Shown here piece after piece: positions 5,572-53,905 of a stretch of 64,000 nucleotides of DNA (positions are counted from its first letter, which is position 1; every line of letters starts with the position of its first letter). Below the pieces are notes generated by a model, which worked only from the letters and a program-made list of their open reading frames with translations, did not search any database and was not told the DNA's origin. Location: positions 7,417 through 71,416 of the forward strand of contig SLTJ01000037.1 in assembly GCA_004347685.1 (NCBI GenBank). Reading direction: 5' to 3'. A program made the position numbers and the translations under genes. Source of the stretch: Clostridia bacterium. Lineage in GTDB: Bacteria; Bacillota; DSM-521; Neomoorellales; SLTJ01.

Positions 5572-7394
<1,823 letters not shown>

Positions 7395-7539
7395 CAAAAA
7401 AAACCCCTCCAGGAGTCTCCTGGTAGGAGTAGTTAAATGGTCCACCAGCCAATACTCCTACCAGGGATTATTGTCCCTTGGTAGGAGTCATTAACCCTCG
7501 CGGGGTGGTTTGCGGCGGACTCCATCACCATTTGCTAAT

Positions 7540-22690: not shown

Positions 22691-24037
22691 TCAGAACTTG
22701 GTCAGGTACCTTTCCAGTTCCCAGGCGTGCACCTGCTGCCGGTACTCGGCCCACTCTACCTTCTTGGCTTCCATGAACCGGCCATAAATATGCGGCCCCA
22801 GGGCCTCCTGCAGCACCCGGTCTTCAGCCAGCACCTCCAGGGCCTGCGCCAGATCCGCCGGCAGGCTGGCTATGCCCAGTTCTTCCCTCTCGGACTCGGT
22901 CATCTCGTAGATATTGCGGTCCACCCGCGGCGGCGGCTCGATCCCCTGTTCGATGCCGTCCAGGCCGGCCTTGAGCATCACGGCAATGGCCAAGTACGGA
23001 TTGCACGCCGGGTCGGGGTTGCGCAGTTCCACCCGGGTGGAAAGGCCCCGCTTGGCCGGGATGCGGATCAGCGGGCTGCGGTTGCGCACTGACCAGGCCA
23101 GGTACACCGGGGCCTCAAAGCCAGGCACCAGCCGCTTGTACGAATTCACCGTAGGGTTGGTAATGGCGGCCATGGCCCGGGCGTGGTGCAGGAGCCCGCC
23201 GATGTACAAGTAAGCTTCCCGGCTCAACTGCAGCTCGGCGCCGGGATCGTAGAAGGCGTTGTCATCGCCCCGGAAGAGAGACTGATTGGTATGCATGCCG
23301 GAGCCGTTGATGCCGAAGATGGGCTTGGGCATGAAGGTGGCGTGCAGGCCATGGCGCTGGGCAATGGTGCGGACGACAAACTTGAAGGTGACGATGTTGT
23401 CGGCCGTAGTCAGGGCGTCGGCGTACTTGAAGTCTATCTCATGCTGGCCGGGCGCCACCTCATGGTGCGAAGCCTCAATCTCGTAGCCCATGCTCTCCAG
23501 GGTAAGGGCAATGTCCCGGCGCGCGTTTTCGCCCCGGTCCACCGGAGACAGGTCGAAGTAGCCGGCCTGGTCGTGGGTATTCAGCGTCGGCCGTCCATCC
23601 TCGGTGGTGTGGAAGAGAAAAAACTCACATTCAGGACCTACGTTCATAGTATACCCTTCGGCCGCCGCCTCGGCCAGCACCCGGCGCAGGTTGGCCCGCG
23701 GGCAGCCAGCAAAAGGCGTCCCGTCAGGATTATAAACATCGCATATCAGCCTCGCCACCGCGCCCTCGCTGGGCCGCCAGGGGAAAACGGCAAAGGTGTT
23801 GGGATCCGGCCGCAGGTACATGTCGGATTCCTCAATGCGGACAAAGCCGTCAATGGACGAGCCGTCAAACATCAGCTCGCCTTCCAGGGCCTTCTCCAAC
23901 TGGTCGGCGGTGATGGCCACGTTCTTCAGCACCCCGAAAATATCGGTGAACTGCAGGCGGATAAACTCCACTCCCTGGTCTTCCACCTTCTTCAATACGT
24001 CCTCCTTGGTAAGTCGCGACAATCTGTTTACCCCCAT
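22691..24037 (-). CDS. glnA: Glutamine synthetase type I (copy 1)
   Basis: 448 aa from [17 protein letters not shown] motifs [19 protein letters not shown]. The ORF-track extension to 24133 is leader RNA. Confidence 0.9.
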
Positions 24038-24132
24038 TCTAGCGTAGATAGGAATCCTTTGAGGCAAACCGCGGCCCGTTTCCTGTCCGGGGCACCTCAA
24101 CCCTGGCAATTGCGCCCAGCCTGGAAGCCGCA

Positions 24133-24260
24133 ATAAAAATAAAAAGTCCCTCCGGAGGCAGATATACTGCTCCGGAAGGACTCCATCGCCTCTCCAGGCC
24201 CATGGACGCCATTGCCCACCTGGCTCCCTCTATTATATCCTCCTCGCGAGAAATCGTCAA
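24133..24260 (-). promoter_or_regulatory. glnA-1 promoter plus ANTAR-type antiterminator/terminator leader
   Basis: TTGACG-17-TATAAT (24260-24232). Hairpin GGGC-AAUGGC-GUCC at 24204-24217 (hexaloop with A1 and G4). A second GGC-GAUGGA-GUCC hairpin has its 3' arm inside the 13-bp terminator AGUCCUUCCGGAG/CUCCGGAGGGACU plus UUUUUAUUUUU. Confidence 0.65.
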
Positions 24261-24553: not shown

Positions 24554-25240
24554 CTACCCCAGTGTCAGCAACTGCAGCTTCCCGGTCAGCACCAGGAGGC
24601 CAAATGCCACCAGGATCAGCCCGCCGACCAGAGAGACATGGGGCAGGTAGCGGTTGAAAAAGCGGCGGAAGCGGCTGAAGTAGCCGAGGAGAAGGGCCGC
24701 CAGGAAGAAGGGCAGGCCCAGGCCCAGGGAATACAGCCCCAACAGGTATACCCCCTGCCCGACCGTCTGGGCGCTGGCGGCATACACCAGGATCGAGGCC
24801 AACACCGGACCCACGCACGGGGTCCAGCCCACGGCAAAGGCCATGCCCAGGCCCAGGGCCGGGAAAAACCCCATGGCCCGCGGCCGGTAGTCCACCCGCT
24901 GCTCCCGGTACAGGCCGGGAATACGGATCAGGCCCGTCATGTATATCCCGAAGGCGATGATAAAAATGCCGGCCACCCGCTGCCAGACGTCCCGGTAACC
25001 GAGGAGGAGCTGGCCGATAAAGCTGGCCGAGGCGCCCAGAGCCACAAAAACTAAGGAAAAACCAAAGATAAAGGCCAACGCCCGCCAGGCCACCAGCCAG
25101 CGCGAAGCGGACCCGCCGGCGCCCCATTCCGCCGCCGAGCTACCGGTCAGGTAAGTAACGTAGGCCGGAATTAAAGGCAGTACACAAGGCGATACAAAGG
25201 AGACCAGCCCGCCGCCAAAGGCAAAAAGTCCGGATACCAT
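24554..25240 (-). CDS. ccdA: Cytochrome c biogenesis thiol-disulfide transporter CcdA (DsbD family)
   Basis: SFVSPCVLPLIPAY and PCVGP motifs, six TM helices. Start at MVSGLFAFGGG is inferred. Confidence 0.85.
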   Translation of the reverse strand: MVSGLFAFGGGLVSFVSPCVLPLIPAYVTYLTGSSAAEWGAGGSASRWLVAWRALAFIFGFSLVFVALGASASFIGQLLLGYRDVWQRVAGIFIIAFGIYMTGLIRIPGLYREQRVDYRPRAMGFFPALGLGMAFAVGWTPCVGPVLASILVYAASAQTVGQGVYLLGLYSLGLGLPFFLAALLLGYFSRFRRFFNRYLPHVSLVGGLILVAFGLLVLTGKLQLLTLG

Positions 25241-25538
25241 TTCCGTCGCATGCGCACCCTCCCCAAAGCAACATCCACAGAAGCACCCGCAGGGGATAAC
25301 TGCTTCTCTCACTTTTAGTATACTATACACCTCTTATACTGTCAATTCATTCCTGTTCTTACCAGGCATCTTCCCACCACTACATTGGCCCTATGAATGG
25401 GCGGGGGAGTCCTAGGCTCGCGCTGCCACCTGCGCCTAAGGGGCCGGGCCGACATGAAAAAAAGCACCTTTTAGCAAAGGTGCCTTTTTTCAAGTTACAA
25501 GAGAAAGCCCCTAAACTCAGGGGCCTCCAAAGCAAGCC

Positions 25539-25832
25539 TTACGCATGCATGGTTTGTTGTTGTTGTTGTTGCTGCACGTTCCTAGCCATCTGCTGCAGCA
25601 GGCTGATGTCCTGGGAATCAGCCGGGCTAAGCTGGTACCAGCCTTTATTGTTCAGGGCGTTGAAGATCTGGTGTTGGAGGTTAAGCTCGTCCTGGTAGAT
25701 GGAATTGAAATCACGCAAGAGTTGATCCGAGGCGCATTCCATTACCGCGCGGTTGTACCCGTCGAGGAGGAGCTTCTGGCTTCCCAGGGCGTCACTCATG
25801 CAGAAGCGATCATCAAGTTGAACCACCGGCAT
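25539..25832 (-). CDS. Spore coat protein F (Coat_F domain) family protein with a poly-Gln tail
   Basis: DALGSQKLLLDGYNRAVMECASDQLR...NNKGWY pattern typical of Coat_F. The C-terminal QQQQQQQ is encoded by (CAA)6. Confidence 0.7.
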   Translation of the reverse strand: MPVVQLDDRFCMSDALGSQKLLLDGYNRAVMECASDQLLRDFNSIYQDELNLQHQIFNALNNKGWYQLSPADSQDISLLQQMARNVQQQQQQQTMHA

Positions 25833-25877: not shown

Positions 25878-26081
25878 TTACATCATCGGCTGGCCGGCAT
25901 TGATATGGCGCAGCAGCATATCGCGGTGCCGCTGGTGCAATTGCTGGGCATTGAGGCACGTTTGCTTCAATTGCGGATCTGAGACGATATTGGCAAAAGC
26001 ACCATACTTCTGGATCATAAGCGTCTCGGCACTCAGGTTTTCTCGCAGCGACATTACTTCCGCCTGGGTCAAATTGGCCAT
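25878..26081 (-). CDS. Small spore-coat-associated protein (CotF-operon partner-like)
   Basis: 67-aa ORF immediately upstream of the Coat_F gene. The LTQAEVMSLRENLSAE..KYGAFA pattern resembles small coat-F-like proteins. Confidence 0.5.
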   Translation of the reverse strand: MANLTQAEVMSLRENLSAETLMIQKYGAFANIVSDPQLKQTCLNAQQLHQRHRDMLLRHINAGQPMM

Positions 26082-26096
26082 GGAAAGTCTCCTTTC

Positions 26097-26333
26097 TCAT
26101 TGCAGGATTTTCTCCAACCGGTTGCGGTCAAAACCGACTATGGTTTCCCCCTTCACCACCATTGTCGGCACGGCCAGCCGGCCGGTACGGCTGTACATCT
26201 CGTCCCGCGCCGCGTCATCTTCGGCCACGTTAAACTCCTTGAAGGCCACCCCTTTTTGGGAAAGAAACTCTTTCACCTGGGCACAATACGGTCAGGTGGG
26301 CGTAGTATAGACTATCACCGGCTGATCAGCCAT
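26097..26333 (-). CDS. Glutaredoxin-like protein with in-frame UGA (putative selenocysteine) at the first position of the CPYC redox motif
   Basis: Minus strand: MADQPVIVYTTPT-TGA-PYCAQVKEFLSQKGVAFKEFNVAEDDAARDEMYSRTGRLAVPTMVVKGETIVGFDRNRLEKILQ*. TGA at 26292-26294. RBS GGAGGG. A hairpin GG(U)GAAAG-AGUUU-CUUUCC begins 14 nt downstream of the UGA. Not in the ORF track. Confidence 0.8.
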
Positions 26334-26453
26334 GGTCATCCCTCCTGGTGCTATTATTTCCCCTTCTCCAGGACGTATGCACAGAAAGCAAAAACCAGGA
26401 AAGCACCATAATAATCTTTGGGCCCAGCGCCAGGGCTGGCGCCTCGCACGTTC

Positions 26454-32522: not shown

Positions 32523-34637
32523 TTACTTCAAGGGAAGGCTGGTCAGTTTTGTTATCTCTTCCTCCGAATAGCCCAATCCCTGCCAGTCAAAGACACCCTT
32601 CTCGCTGTGGCAGCCGGTACATGACCGCCCCCCGGCCGTGATGGCATGGTTGATCATCAGCGTGGCATCCATGGGCATGGGCGCCCACATATACTCCCCG
32701 CTCCAGGGACCGGGGGTGAACCGCTGGTTAAATTCCGCCGCCATCTTTGTCAGGTATGGGACCATTTCCTGGCTGTACAGCATCTGCATAAAGGGACTGG
32801 CCATAGCCGACTTCACGGCGGCGTCGGGATCACCCGTCTCCTTGAGCATTTTCAAGTCAAAGGGGAGCAGGATAAACGGATTCTTTTTGTCCACCGGCAT
32901 TATGGAGTTAAAGCCACGGAACGGGGTAATCTTGTCCTCCGGCGGATTCCCCTTTTGCCCTGGATAGACGAGCCCTTTACTGGAAAGGGCATTGGCCATG
33001 GCCGTACCGGTGCCATTGAACCAGCGCCAGGCGATTTTGCCGGGTTCATGGGTGATGGTCGGCTCATAATAGCCGGTTTCCGGATTGAGTACCATCTTCG
33101 ACCAGTCGTACAGGCTGAAGGCCGTATCAGGTACGTGGCAGGACTCGCAGGCCAGTACCTGGGCGTGCTCGTTCAGCAGTTCGCCGGTCTGGTTCTGGTG
33201 CGGCGCGGGTGTATGACATTTGGCGCACGACACTTCTACCTCAGGCAGGTCGTTGTCCACCAGGTCCGTCGCCGCCTGCCCCTTGGCTATCTTGTGGTTC
33301 TGCACGGTATGGCAATCAGTGCACTCCATCCCGGCGGCCGCATGTACGTCGGTGGCCGGAGTAAAGGGCGTCATCCGCTTATATTTCTCCCCCTGCATGG
33401 CGTGCTCGTGACAGCGCATACAGATTTCGGTGTTCGTCGGGCCGACCGTTAAAGCGGCTGCGTACGCCTCCTCGGGATCCAGAGTGAAAACTCCAGCCTT
33501 GCCCTGAGGCGTGTCAACGTACTCCACCCGGCGGGCCGGGTACTTCTCGGCGTGGCAAATGAGGCAGTCCAGCTTTTCCTTTTCGGCCGGGTCGGGCGTA
33601 TCGGCCATGAAGTTGGGCGGCCCAGTCGTACCCAGGGTGACATGGCACTTGCCGCAACTGTTCAAGGTATCGGCCTGGCCCGTAGTGTTGCTGGTGGCCA
33701 GATAGGCCCAGGAGATGCCGGCGGCTCCGGCCGGGAACCCGCAAAAGCGGTTGGCCATCCCCGCTGGTAGGTCATAGCTACCACCGTTGAAATCCTTGGT
33801 GGCCGCACCGTAGTCTACCAACCGATAATGCGCGGTATCCAACAGTTCCTCTCCGGCCTGCGGGTGGCAGGTGAGACAGGTATTGGCTCCGGCATAACCG
33901 TTAGCCTCGATGTAGGCAGTACCCGGATGGGCGGTATTGAGCTGTACCTGTGACGGTGTTTCCTGTAGCGGTGTTTCCTGACCGGCCCGGTGCGCGGCGG
34001 CCGTTACTAGCTTAATACCTGCCTGTGGGTCATAACTTACACCGTACCCGAGTGCATTGGCCACAAAGCGTAACGGCAAGAAACTCCGCCCACCCGCCAG
34101 ACGTGCTGCCGGGGCCTGCTGCTCAACCGCGTTGACCATAACCTGGCCGCTACGCGCGTTAAATGACACCGTGGTTGCGGCATGGCGCAAAACGACTACC
34201 TTCTCCTTGTGCTGCCACTCTACCTGCAGGCCGAGTACACGGGCCAACTCCCGGGCGGGTGCCAGGAACTGGCCACGCGCCATGTAACCGGTCAGCCGGA
34301 CCCGGTCGCCGCCGACCGTTACCACCATACTCGCCGGCTCCAGGCCCTGCGGCCTCGAGATGGCTGCCTTGGGGGCACCGGGAGCTGTAGTTGGCGGGTT
34401 TGTTTTGACACCCGCACCGCCTGTGGCCGGCTTGGCCATGGCCTGAAAATCGCGGCCGGCTGCCACCCATTTCCGGCCAAATTCATTGAGGGCCGGTACG
34501 GCGCTGTGGCACAGGTTGCAGCTTTTTTCGTAACCGGCAGGGACCTTATCTATGTAGTCCGGTTTGGCCTGGGCTTCCGCAGATACTAGCAGCACCACCA
34601 ACATAAGCACCGAACTCAAGATCAATTTCTTCCACAT
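32523..34637 (-). CDS. Secreted nine-heme c-type cytochrome with an inserted copper-amine-oxidase-N-terminal-like (cell-wall-associated stalk) domain
   Basis: Signal peptide MWKKLILSSVLMLVVLLVSAEAQA. Nine CxxCH motifs (CNLCH, CLTCH, CGKCH, CLICH, CMRCH, CTDCH, CAKCH, CESCH, CTGCH). The segment VTVGGDRVRL...LPLRFVANALGYGVSYDP resembles Cu_amine_oxidN1. Confidence 0.85.
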   Translation of the reverse strand: MWKKLILSSVLMLVVLLVSAEAQAKPDYIDKVPAGYEKSCNLCHSAVPALNEFGRKWVAAGRDFQAMAKPATGGAGVKTNPPTTAPGAPKAAISRPQGLEPASMVVTVGGDRVRLTGYMARGQFLAPARELARVLGLQVEWQHKEKVVVLRHAATTVSFNARSGQVMVNAVEQQAPAARLAGGRSFLPLRFVANALGYGVSYDPQAGIKLVTAAAHRAGQETPLQETPSQVQLNTAHPGTAYIEANGYAGANTCLTCHPQAGEELLDTAHYRLVDYGAATKDFNGGSYDLPAGMANRFCGFPAGAAGISWAYLATSNTTGQADTLNSCGKCHVTLGTTGPPNFMADTPDPAEKEKLDCLICHAEKYPARRVEYVDTPQGKAGVFTLDPEEAYAAALTVGPTNTEICMRCHEHAMQGEKYKRMTPFTPATDVHAAAGMECTDCHTVQNHKIAKGQAATDLVDNDLPEVEVSCAKCHTPAPHQNQTGELLNEHAQVLACESCHVPDTAFSLYDWSKMVLNPETGYYEPTITHEPGKIAWRWFNGTGTAMANALSSKGLVYPGQKGNPPEDKITPFRGFNSIMPVDKKNPFILLPFDLKMLKETGDPDAAVKSAMASPFMQMLYSQEMVPYLTKMAAEFNQRFTPGPWSGEYMWAPMPMDATLMINHAITAGGRSCTGCHSEKGVFDWQGLGYSEEEITKLTSLPLK

Positions 34638-34951: not shown

Positions 34952-35028
34952 GGAGCCGTAGTGCAGGGGTTTAACACGCTGGCCTGTCAAGCCAGAGATC
35001 GCGGGTTCAATTCCCGTCGGCTCCGCCA
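34952..35028 (+). tRNA. tRNA-Asp (GTC)
   Basis: Cloverleaf: acceptor GGAGCCG/CGGCTCC, anticodon loop CTGTCAA, T-arm GCGGGTTCAATTCCCGT, encoded CCA. Confidence 0.95.
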
Positions 35029-35033
35029 TCTAT

Positions 35034-35109
35034 GCCTCGGTAGCTCAGTCGGTAGAGCAGTGGACTGAAAATCCACGTGTCGGCGGTTCGATTCCGCCCT
35101 GAGGCACCA
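35034..35109 (+). tRNA. tRNA-Phe (GAA)
   Basis: GCCTCGGTAGCTCAGTCGGTAGAGC..ACTGAAAAT..GGTTCGATTCC..CCA. Confidence 0.95.
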
Positions 35110-35135
35110 AACAAAATATGAAAACAACCAAACGA

Positions 35136-35210
<75 letters not shown>

Positions 35211-35219
35211 TTTGTTTGT

Positions 35220-35295
35220 GGTGCGGTGGCGAAGTGGCTAACGCCGCGGTCTGCAAAACCGCTATTCGCCGGTTCGAGTCCGGCCCGCACCTCCA
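35220..35295 (+). tRNA. tRNA-Cys (GCA)
   Basis: GGTGCGGTGGCGAAGTGG..TCTGCAAAA..GGTTCGAGTCC..CCGCACCTCCA. Confidence 0.95.
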
Positions 35296-52573: not shown

Positions 52574-53905
52574 CTAGAACTTGGTCAGGTATTCCTGCAC
52601 CTCCCAGGGGTGTACCTGGGAGCGATACCGCTCCCACTCAATGCGCTTGGCCTCAATAAACCGGTCCAGGATGTGGGGACCCAGAGCTTCCTTTATCACG
52701 TTATTTGCCTCCAGGGCGGCCAGGGCCTGGCTCAGGTCCTGGGGCAGAGTGGCAATTCCCAAAGCCCGCCGTTCAGCTTCAGTCATAGCGTAGATGTTCC
52801 GGTCACAGGGCGGCGGCGGCTCGATCTTGTTCTCTATCCCGTCCATGCCAGCGGCCAGGCAGACGGCCAGGGCCAAGTACGGATTGCAAGTGGGGTCCGG
52901 AGAGCGGAATTCAATCCGGGTAGACGGCCCCTTCTTGGCTGGGATCCGGATCAGGGGGCTGCGGTTCTGGTAAGACCAGGCAATGTACACCGGGGCCTCA
53001 AAGCCGGAAACCAGCCGTTTATATGAATTTACCGTCGGGCTGGTTATGGCGGCAATGGCCGGGGCGTGGGCCAGCAGGCCGCCGATGTAATACCTGGCCA
53101 CCTGGCTCAACTGGTCCGGCGTGTCCGGGTCGTAAAAGGCGTTCACGCCATTCTGCTCCAGAGACTGGTTCAGGTGCATCCCGGAGCCGGGAACCCCGTA
53201 AATGGGTTTGGCCATGAAGGTGGCGTGCAGGCCGTGCCGCTGGGCGATGGTGCGGACGACAAACTTGAAGGTGACGATCTTATCAGCCATGTCCAGGGCG
53301 TTGGAGTATTTAAAGTCGATTTCATGCTGACCCGGGGCCACTTCGTGGTGGGAAGCTTCCACCTCGAAGTCCATGTCCTGCAGGGTAAGCACGATATCCC
53401 GGCGGGCGTTTTCCCCCAGATCCACCGGGCTGAGGTCAAAGTAGCCGCCCTGGTCGTGGGTGATCAGGGTTGGCCGCCCTTCCGCGTCGGTATGAAAGAG
53501 GAAAAACTCAGCCTCCGGGCCCACCTGCATGGTAAAACCCCTCTTCGCGGCCTGTTCCGTAACCCGGCGCAAGTTCCAGCGCGGGCAGCCGATAAAGGGC
53601 GTGCCGTCCGGCATATACACATCACAGATCATCCGGGCCACGGCCCCCTCCTGGGGTCGCCACGGAAAAATCACAAAACTAGCCGGGTCCGGCCGCAGGT
53701 ACATATCAGATTCTTCAATGCGGACAAAGCCTTCGATGGAGGAGCCATCAAACATCAACTCCCCTGTCAGGGCCTTGTCAAGCTGTTCCCGGGTAATGGC
53801 CACGTTCTTGAGGACACCAAAGATATCGGTAAATTGCAGGCGGATAAACTTGACGTTATGTTCCTTCACCAGTTCCTTGACCTCTTCGCTAGTGAAAGCC
53901 GCCAT
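52574..53905 (-). CDS. glnA: Glutamine synthetase type I (copy 2)
   Basis: 443 aa, collinear with and highly similar to copy 1 (same [19 protein letters not shown] motifs). Confidence 0.9.

Follow-up and report, generated by a model that had tools for sequence, protein, structure and literature searches.

An in-frame UGA in a YruB-family glutaredoxin gene of a Desulfotomaculia-type spore former very probably encodes selenocysteine

A TGA codon that falls exactly on the first redox cysteine of a small glutaredoxin can mark either a broken gene or a selenocysteine (Sec) residue that standard annotation has overlooked. The gene in question (here called grx) lies at 26097..26333 on the minus strand of the window, by which we mean the whole 64-kb stretch of DNA that was analyzed. 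Its translation begins with ATG at 26333..26331, covers 78 sense positions (the proposed Sec14 included), and stops at the TGA at 26099..26097; an AGGAGG Shine-Dalgarno sequence (26341..26346, minus strand) is situated 7 nt 5′ of the ATG. A single in-frame TGA (26294..26292, minus strand; the next base is C, giving UGAC) interrupts this frame between T-P-T and P-Y-C, and the product reads MADQPVIVYTTPT ahead of this codon (residue 14) and PYCAQVKEFLSQKGVAFKEFNVAEDDAARDEMYSRTGRLAVPTMVVKGETIVGFDRNRLEKILQ behind it. If read as Sec, the TGA would provide the attacking residue of a U-P-Y-C motif, of which the resolving cysteine, Cys17, is assigned by ortholog alignment to the TGT at 26283..26285 (minus strand). 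The original prediction had described a complete 78-codon minus-strand glutaredoxin with a good ribosome-binding site, and its coordinates, frame, and AGGAGG element are all correct; that the TGA is the sole interruption and sits precisely on the first redox cysteine matches both the translation and the alignment with Cys-containing homologs. The gene had also been said to escape the open reading frame (ORF) track, and the standard ORF list indeed contains only a 59-amino-acid (aa) GTG restart (26276..26097) at this locus. On the comparative evidence, we consider the locus to be, very probably, an intact gene for a Sec-containing glutaredoxin of the YruB family.

The family assignment itself is straightforward. 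With cysteine put in place of Sec, the product scores 73.6 bits against the Pfam Glutaredoxin profile PF00462 (cutoff, 22.9) and narrowly passes NCBIfam TIGR02196, the profile for YruB-family glutaredoxin-like proteins (89.5 bits; cutoff, 88.55). The NrdH-redoxin profile TIGR02194 gives 45.1 bits, well short of its cutoff (85.75), and the “NrdH-like” label that had been attached to the protein is therefore replaced by a YruB-type designation. Among solved structures, the best match is PDB 7c10 (E = 2.4e-18 over residues 5 to 77), in which C-P-H-C lines up with U14-P-Y-C17. Both V55-P56 and G67-F68 are invariant in the protein alignment, such that the cis-proline (xVP) and G-F motifs are present; the former had been given as T-V-P, and the sequence reads A-V-P.

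We gauged how the redox codon behaves across the family by scanning GTDB, at one genome per species, with a five-sequence query alignment; the scan returned 75 loci, none of the matches exceeding 68% identity. The comparison of Cys with Sec orthologs that the original prediction had proposed gave a clear outcome: 51 loci have TGA at the homologous codon, and 21 have a Cys codon there. TGA is kept in three close relatives of the window and in 47 further distinct sequences from named genomes, and 50 distinct TGA-form sequences are used hereafter. TGA occupies the Sec codon in every one of the 50, which bears out the argument that a chance nonsense mutation on the redox codon is unlikely, and the cysteine at +3 from the redox position is present in all 50 Sec forms and all 21 Cys forms. 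Most TGA forms carry the motif UPHC (40 loci), followed by UPYC (5 loci) and by ULYC, URHC, UPPC, UPTC, URSC, and UQSC at one locus each, and the Cys forms are mostly CVYC and come from Patescibacteria. TGA-bearing genomes include Pelotomaculum, Desulfofundulus, Desulfovirgula, Desulfotomaculum copahuensis, Thermanaeromonas (L067), Syntrophomonadaceae, Rokubacteria, and one Bacillus. The last two extend Sec-glutaredoxins (Sec-Grx) beyond the Clostridia-type Firmicutes: three Rokuibacteriota loci (L062, L069, and L074) and Bacillus sp. Marseille-Q3570 (L056) display unusual motifs (URSC, UQSC, and UPPC) with a nearly unchanged hairpin sequence downstream of the codon.

Relatives near the window show whether the codons ahead of the TGA are still under constraint. 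The TGA, the reading frame, the ribosome-binding site, and the downstream hairpin recur in three independent assemblies, represented by L001/L002 (~90% nucleotide identity) and L079, with the AGGAGG element itself retained in L001 and L079; the L003 sequence matches the window exactly. Over the 12 codons 5′ of the TGA, the window differs from L001 by three synonymous changes and one nonsynonymous change (pN/pS 0.12) and from L079 by five synonymous changes and no nonsynonymous change (pN/pS 0), and L001 differs from L079 by two and one, respectively. For the two comparisons with the window, the downstream codons give a pN/pS of ~0.10 to 0.13. Among the close relatives, pN/pS ranges from 0 to 0.19 upstream of the TGA and from 0.04 to 0.13 downstream; when all pairs of TGA forms are considered, codons −8 to −1 give a pS of 0.68, a pN of 0.12, and a pN/pS of 0.18. 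Purifying selection is equally strong on the 13 codons upstream and the 64 codons downstream of the TGA. The stretch before the TGA is, thus, translated in the same frame as the remainder of grx, and the decaying pseudogene that had been named as a possible refutation is excluded, as is a sequencing error, the frame, ribosome-binding site, and hairpin being intact in L001/L002 and L079.

A younger relic needs separate consideration. Here, the family would use Sec but the source genome would have lost its Sec machinery, leaving a stop after 13 residues and a recently inactivated gene. Consistent with such a loss, inspection of ORFs, tRNAs, and Rfam and Pfam matches detected no selA, selB, selD, or tRNA-Sec in the 64-kb window, and when every TGA flanked by open frame was listed, no second TGA-split (selenoprotein) gene was found there. 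However, 64 kb is too small for sel genes to be expected. Moreover, three diverged lineages (the window, L001/L002, and L079; pS ~0.2 to 0.5) all keep the TGA, hairpin, ribosome-binding site, and frame, and nearly all changes upstream of the TGA are synonymous, whereas a dead gene this diverged should show frameshifts or nonsynonymous drift. We view a relic as very unlikely, and the conservation of TGA and hairpin among these three diverged close relatives argues strongly for active Sec decoding in the source lineage.

Several candidates were set aside during this inspection. Pfam assigned the ORFs of SelD-, SelA-, or SelB-like length to an amidohydrolase, an asparagine synthase, a flavoprotein disulfide reductase, a glutamine synthetase, and others, and one such ORF of ~346 aa matched no Pfam family. 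A UxxC context at position 7080 is out of frame inside a longer ORF (6357..7445). The Rfam scan of the window recovered only tRNAs and a fluoride riboswitch, with no match to a bacterial SECIS family. The riboswitch (RF01734; 7475-7538, minus strand; 51.6 bits against a gathering threshold of 34) is located directly 5′ of the ORF at 7445..6357, and a tRNA cluster on the plus strand (34952-35295) comprises Asp-GTC, Phe-GAA, Gly-GCC, and Cys-GCA. Other features of the window include a glutamine synthetase ORF (52574-53905, minus strand) with Pfam Gln-synt_N and Gln-synt_C domains; a putative second glutamine synthetase-like ORF (22691-24133, minus strand), judged from its translation; and a 704-aa ORF (32523-34637, minus strand) with a copper-amine-oxidase N-terminal-like domain and multihaem cytochrome c7/c3 motifs, probably a cell-surface multihaem cytochrome.

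As to the source of the DNA, the glutamine synthetase of the window shares 75 to 76% identity with its counterparts in Desulfofundulus, Desulfurispora, and Desulfovirgula, with no closer match among named organisms (the GC content of the window is ~60%), which points to a Desulfotomaculia-type spore former. The grx orthologs of Desulfofundulus and Desulfovirgula, two of these three genera with which the source lineage groups, carry TGA.

It is also conceivable that the UGA is translated, but not as Sec: suppression by a near-cognate Trp or Cys tRNA, or reassignment under genetic code 4 or 25, would yield W-, C-, or G-P-Y-C. UGA followed by C is a weak, leaky termination context, and all 50 sequences have this C, including those in which the following codon specifies R, L, or Q and not P. 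In addition, one metagenomic gene call (P0003, on a 777-bp ENA metagenome contig) has tryptophan at the site, reading TPT-W-PHC. This tryptophan is an artifact of the translation table, presumably one in which TGA encodes Trp. Within the window, TGA ends 17 of 47 long ORFs, grx itself included, as expected under the standard code with no reassignment. Furthermore, the site is the catalytic cysteine position, at which homologs pair with Cys and not with Trp, and a hairpin of SECIS geometry is conserved at a fixed position only in the TGA forms. Non-Sec readthrough is, in our judgment, even less likely than a relic.

The least likely of the three alternatives is that the locus makes two products, a 13-residue leader and an independent 59-residue protein initiated at the GTG at 26276, with the hairpin serving a regulatory or coupling role. 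In its favor, the ORF list contains the 59-aa GTG ORF, and gene callers emit fragments of this kind. Against it, no Shine-Dalgarno sequence precedes this GTG. A 59-aa fragment devoid of β-strand 1 and the redox motif would not form a functional thioredoxin fold, and the upstream codons spell the conserved V-x-V-Y-T-T-P-T strand, which is constrained at the protein level and is in frame with the rest.

Setting these alternatives against a Sec-encoding UGA brings the hairpin into focus. Numbering from the T of the TGA as 0, the SECIS-type hairpin (26258..26277, minus strand) extends from the third base of Q19 through codons V-K-E-F-L-S to the first base of Q26 and is, therefore, contained within the coding sequence. 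In the window it reads GG(U)GAAAG-AGUUU-CUUUCC(C) and starts 14 nt after the TGA, in agreement with the position and G/U-containing loop originally described. Its pairs are G17-C36, G18-C35, G20-C34, A21-U33, A22-U32, A23-U31, G24-C30, and, optionally, A25-U29, with U19 bulged; the loop is G26-U27-U28 (26268..26266), placing its G-U 22 to 23 nt past the TGA. Most orthologs instead have GUGAAAG-AGUUU-CUUUCAC at nt 18 to 36, a stem of 7 bp or, if A25-U29 closes, of 8 bp with a GUU triloop. The bulged U noted in the original prediction is present in the register used by the window but is not a feature of the family: U19 pairs with A in 35 of 50 orthologs, and the U19-A35 pair is broken by a TCC serine codon in the window, its close relatives, the Desulfofundulus group, L048, and L067. 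A G at nt 17 allows the bulged-U register (G17-C36/G18-C35), and it occurs in all nine sequences with C35 (TCC Ser) versus 11 of the 41 others.

Synonymous sites indicate that this stretch is conserved as RNA. In Sec forms, the stem codons are frozen: GTG encodes Val+6 in 47 of 47 sequences and GAG encodes Glu+8 in 48 of 48, with CTT used for Leu+10 in 46 of 50 and TTT for Phe+9 in 41 of 47. Codon entropy is zero for Val+6 and Glu+8 and close to zero for Leu+10, compared with 1.0 to 1.9 bits where these amino acids occur at other places in the gene and for the stem positions in Cys forms. The synonymous sites of V-K-E-F-L-S are frozen because the SECIS hairpin is built from these codons, making the set of 50 orthologs a clean example of dual coding. 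All 50 sequences keep pairs 20-34, 21-33, 23-31, and 24-30, and 45 of the 50 have the GUU loop; over the 50 TGA-form sequences, 94.3% of cells pair, versus 40 to 74% when the 3′ partner is slid.

Folding energies point the same way for individual sequences. The median stability for the family is −8.3 kcal/mol (consensus, −8.6 kcal/mol), with 42 of 50 sequences at −7 kcal/mol or better, and in most Patescibacterial Cys forms the same stretch folds weakly or not at all. The window hairpin by itself has a stability of −7.1 kcal/mol (z = −3.2), which none of 200 shuffles equaled; in a 51-nt context it reaches −9.9 kcal/mol, but that context is no better than its shuffles. When 76 nt are folded, the hairpin is not singled out in the minimum free energy (MFE) structure, in which CACCUG (including the UGA) pairs with CAGGUG (z = +0.76). 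This pairing is a chance feature of the lineage, being impossible in most orthologs (CAC/CAT GUG). Covariation is thin, consisting of one double change from U-A to C-G (in two Rokubacteria) and one-sided changes from A-U to G-U in 18 sequences, and RNAalifold recovered only 4 of 8 pairs at ~0 kcal/mol. Accordingly, the case for the hairpin is built on synonymous-site conservation, position, and single-sequence stability and not on covariation.

Published criteria for bacterial SECIS elements specify a loop of 3 to 9 nt, an upper stem of 4 to 16 bp, an MFE of −7.5 kcal/mol or lower, a G in the first two loop positions that is usually followed by G or U, and a distance of 16 to 37 nt between the UGA and the loop (as quoted in a 2026 review, PMC13188914). 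The geometry of the window hairpin is within these ranges: the loop is GUU (or AGUUU), there are eight pairs and one bulge, G is the first (or second) loop base and is followed by U, and the spacing is 23 (or 22) nt. The original claim of compatibility with a bacterial SECIS consequently stands for loop and stem size, position of the G, and spacing, and is borderline for stability, as the core of −7.1 kcal/mol is just short of −7.5 kcal/mol. Taken as a whole, the proposal of a hidden selenoprotein is supported by the pairing of Sec with Cys at one codon, by selection acting both before and after the TGA, and by a frozen hairpin specific to TGA forms.

Two Cys forms are of interest in relation to the hairpin. 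In Pelotomaculum sp. PtaU1.Bin035 (L004:3024-3066), the redox codon is TGT and the motif CPHC, with the hairpin intact (−9.2 kcal/mol, z = −3.2), which suggests a recent Sec-to-Cys conversion that has left a fossil SECIS. In L014 (CPYC), the hairpin is weakened (−5.2 kcal/mol).

By analogy with the established bacterial mechanism, the UGA at 26294..26292 would be decoded as Sec during translation, the mRNA hairpin bringing SelB-GTP-Sec-tRNASec to the approaching ribosome. The V-K-E-F-L-S stretch would, in this process, both encode protein and form the RNA structure, and the invariant C after the UGA would provide a weak termination context. Judging from its family, the product would be a cytoplasmic thiol/selenol-disulfide oxidoreductase with a thioredoxin fold. 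Sec14 would attack an oxidized substrate (a disulfide, sulfenic acid, or selenenic acid), and Cys17 would resolve the mixed selenenylsulfide in a dithiol-type cycle; the oxidized U-P-Y-C motif may then be re-reduced by a low-molecular-weight thiol or by thioredoxin reductase.

The genomic setting of grx is less ordinary than its sequence. The original prediction placed the gene at the head of a minus-strand run with two CotF-like coat genes, with ccdA further downstream, and all of these were found. The first, orf67 (25878..26081, minus strand; 67 aa), is weakly CotF/DUF3231-like (DUF3231, 22.9 bits; Coat_F, 17.3 bits; both below cutoff); it begins 15 nt beyond the grx stop, is preceded by an AAAGGAG ribosome-binding site of its own, and probably shares a transcript with grx. 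The second is a 97-aa Coat_F gene (25539..25832, minus strand; PF07875, 63.4 bits), which would be third in the probable operon. The order grx-orf67-Coat_F is kept in L001, L002, L003, and L079. A GC-rich 8-bp hairpin (25464..25483) between the Coat_F gene and ccdA resembles a terminator and is likely to be the end of the grx-orf67-cotF transcript (its T-run was scored on the plus strand, and use on the minus strand is inferred). The ccdA gene (25330/25240..24554, minus strand), 3′ of the Coat_F gene, is probably a separate transcription unit in view of what appears to be a promoter of its own just upstream, a near-consensus sigma-70-like element (TTGACA-17-TATACT, 11/12; 25317-25345, minus strand). 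Of the two possible ccdA starts, the 228-aa one at 25240 (the start called in L003) is more compatible with this promoter than the 258-aa GTG one at 25330.

The junction between grx and orf67 yielded two candidates that were rejected. The grx stop is itself a TGA, with orf67 in the same frame five codons later; grx ends in KILQ-TGA with no stop two codons on, and in-frame reading enters the next gene, so the C-terminal U-x-x-stop of UXX-star selenoproteins is lacking. A GAAAG-GAGA-CUUUC hairpin over the orf67 Shine-Dalgarno sequence (26074-26104, minus strand) has a stability of −8.9 kcal/mol (z = −2.7) in the window but of −3.5 kcal/mol (z = 0.1) in L001; it is not conserved and probably incidental.

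This arrangement raises the possibility that a Sec-Grx has been drawn into sporulation, as the leading gene of an operon whose other members encode two CotF-like coat proteins. If true, it would place a selenoprotein in the redox maturation of the spore coat or cortex, a role not described for any selenoprotein; the only full-text match in the literature, a gut metatranscriptome study, is not about a spore-coat selenoprotein, judged by title and abstract. None of the other ~47 Sec-Grx loci shows the CotF linkage, which is, as such, a peculiarity of the window lineage. Nor was a conserved operon partner found across the Sec-Grx loci: downstream, 24 have a convergent penicillin-binding-protein-like ORF (identified by eye) and 10 a convergent thioredoxin, and an aminotransferase lies upstream in only 6. 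No sporulation-sigma promoter was identified at the grx operon. We regard recruitment to sporulation as unlikely. Of note is that, in L079 (4906-6219; sample ERR14790949), a convergent GerAC-type germination gene comes next after ccdA and adds a sporulation flavor to that locus.

For databases, the consequences are more immediate. A large protein collection represents grx solely by a 43-aa fragment, and many of its orthologs are deposited as 58- to 62-aa stubs under the names “glutaredoxin” or “NrdH-redoxin” or carry W at the Sec position; Rokubacterial copies, for example, appear as 62-aa “NrdH-redoxin” fragments (P0081). Restarts of 58 to 62 aa and a W at the site are the usual gene-caller signature of a missed Sec codon, and, as a result, too few selenoproteins are counted for Desulfotomaculia-type Firmicutes and Rokubacteria. 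The main value of the present analysis is this annotation fix, the probable operon with CotF-like spore-coat genes being the only unusual feature; what is known of selenocysteine decoding and of glutaredoxins is unchanged, and the SECIS is of the standard bacterial type.

Set beside known systems, grx adds a new member to a recognized selenoprotein family, one that has been verified by experiment: Grx (PF00462, UxxC) is listed among the verified prokaryotic selenoproteins (PMC13188914, PMC9312934, PMC4479559). Its closest characterized counterpart is Grx1 of Alkaliphilus (Clostridium) oremlandii OhILAs, which natively contains U13/C16 and serves as reductant for that organism's selenoprotein MsrA (PMC4479559); its experimental characterization is credited to Kim et al. 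2011, as cited in PMC13188914 and PMC4479559. The sequence of 7c10 is that of the A. oremlandii glutaredoxin (P0084), and PDB entries 7c10, 7c12, and 7c13 are Cys variants of this Grx1. The two proteins are of the same fold and length class and are 47% identical, Sec comes first in both redox motifs (U13/C16 and U14/C17), and K-E-F-L-S follows the motif in both. They differ in that the motif is U-P-H-C in Grx1 but U-P-Y-C in the window protein, in the MsrA partnership (no link to MsrA was seen for grx), and in genomic context, the A. oremlandii host being a low-GC member of the Clostridiales as opposed to a ~60% GC Desulfotomaculia-type spore former.

More distant likenesses extend to other glutaredoxin folds. 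The UXX-star selenoproteins (NF041212, NF041114, and NF041211) share a glutaredoxin-like fold, and grx scores 67.2 against NF041212 (cutoff, 66), matching profile positions 1 to 66 of 70; they are set apart by the C-terminal U-x-x-stop discussed above. Glutaredoxin 3 of Escherichia coli (1fov) and NrdH (1r7h) have the thioredoxin fold, CxxC position, cis-proline, and GF/GG motifs in common with the window protein but carry Cys where it has Sec. Zhang et al. (2006, PMC1794560) had earlier predicted Sec-Grx proteins in Moorella thermoacetica, Geobacter sulfurreducens, and Alkaliphilus metalliredigenes, and, going by the catalog description, these belong to the same family (PF00462, UxxC; reference sequence WP_010943784.1 in PMC13188914). 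Moorella is a thermophilic Firmicute, and one of our Sec-form orthologs (L067) comes from Thermanaeromonas. Against the three occurrences in the 2006 catalog (PMC1794560), the Sec form of this glutaredoxin is now represented by ~50 species-level genomes.
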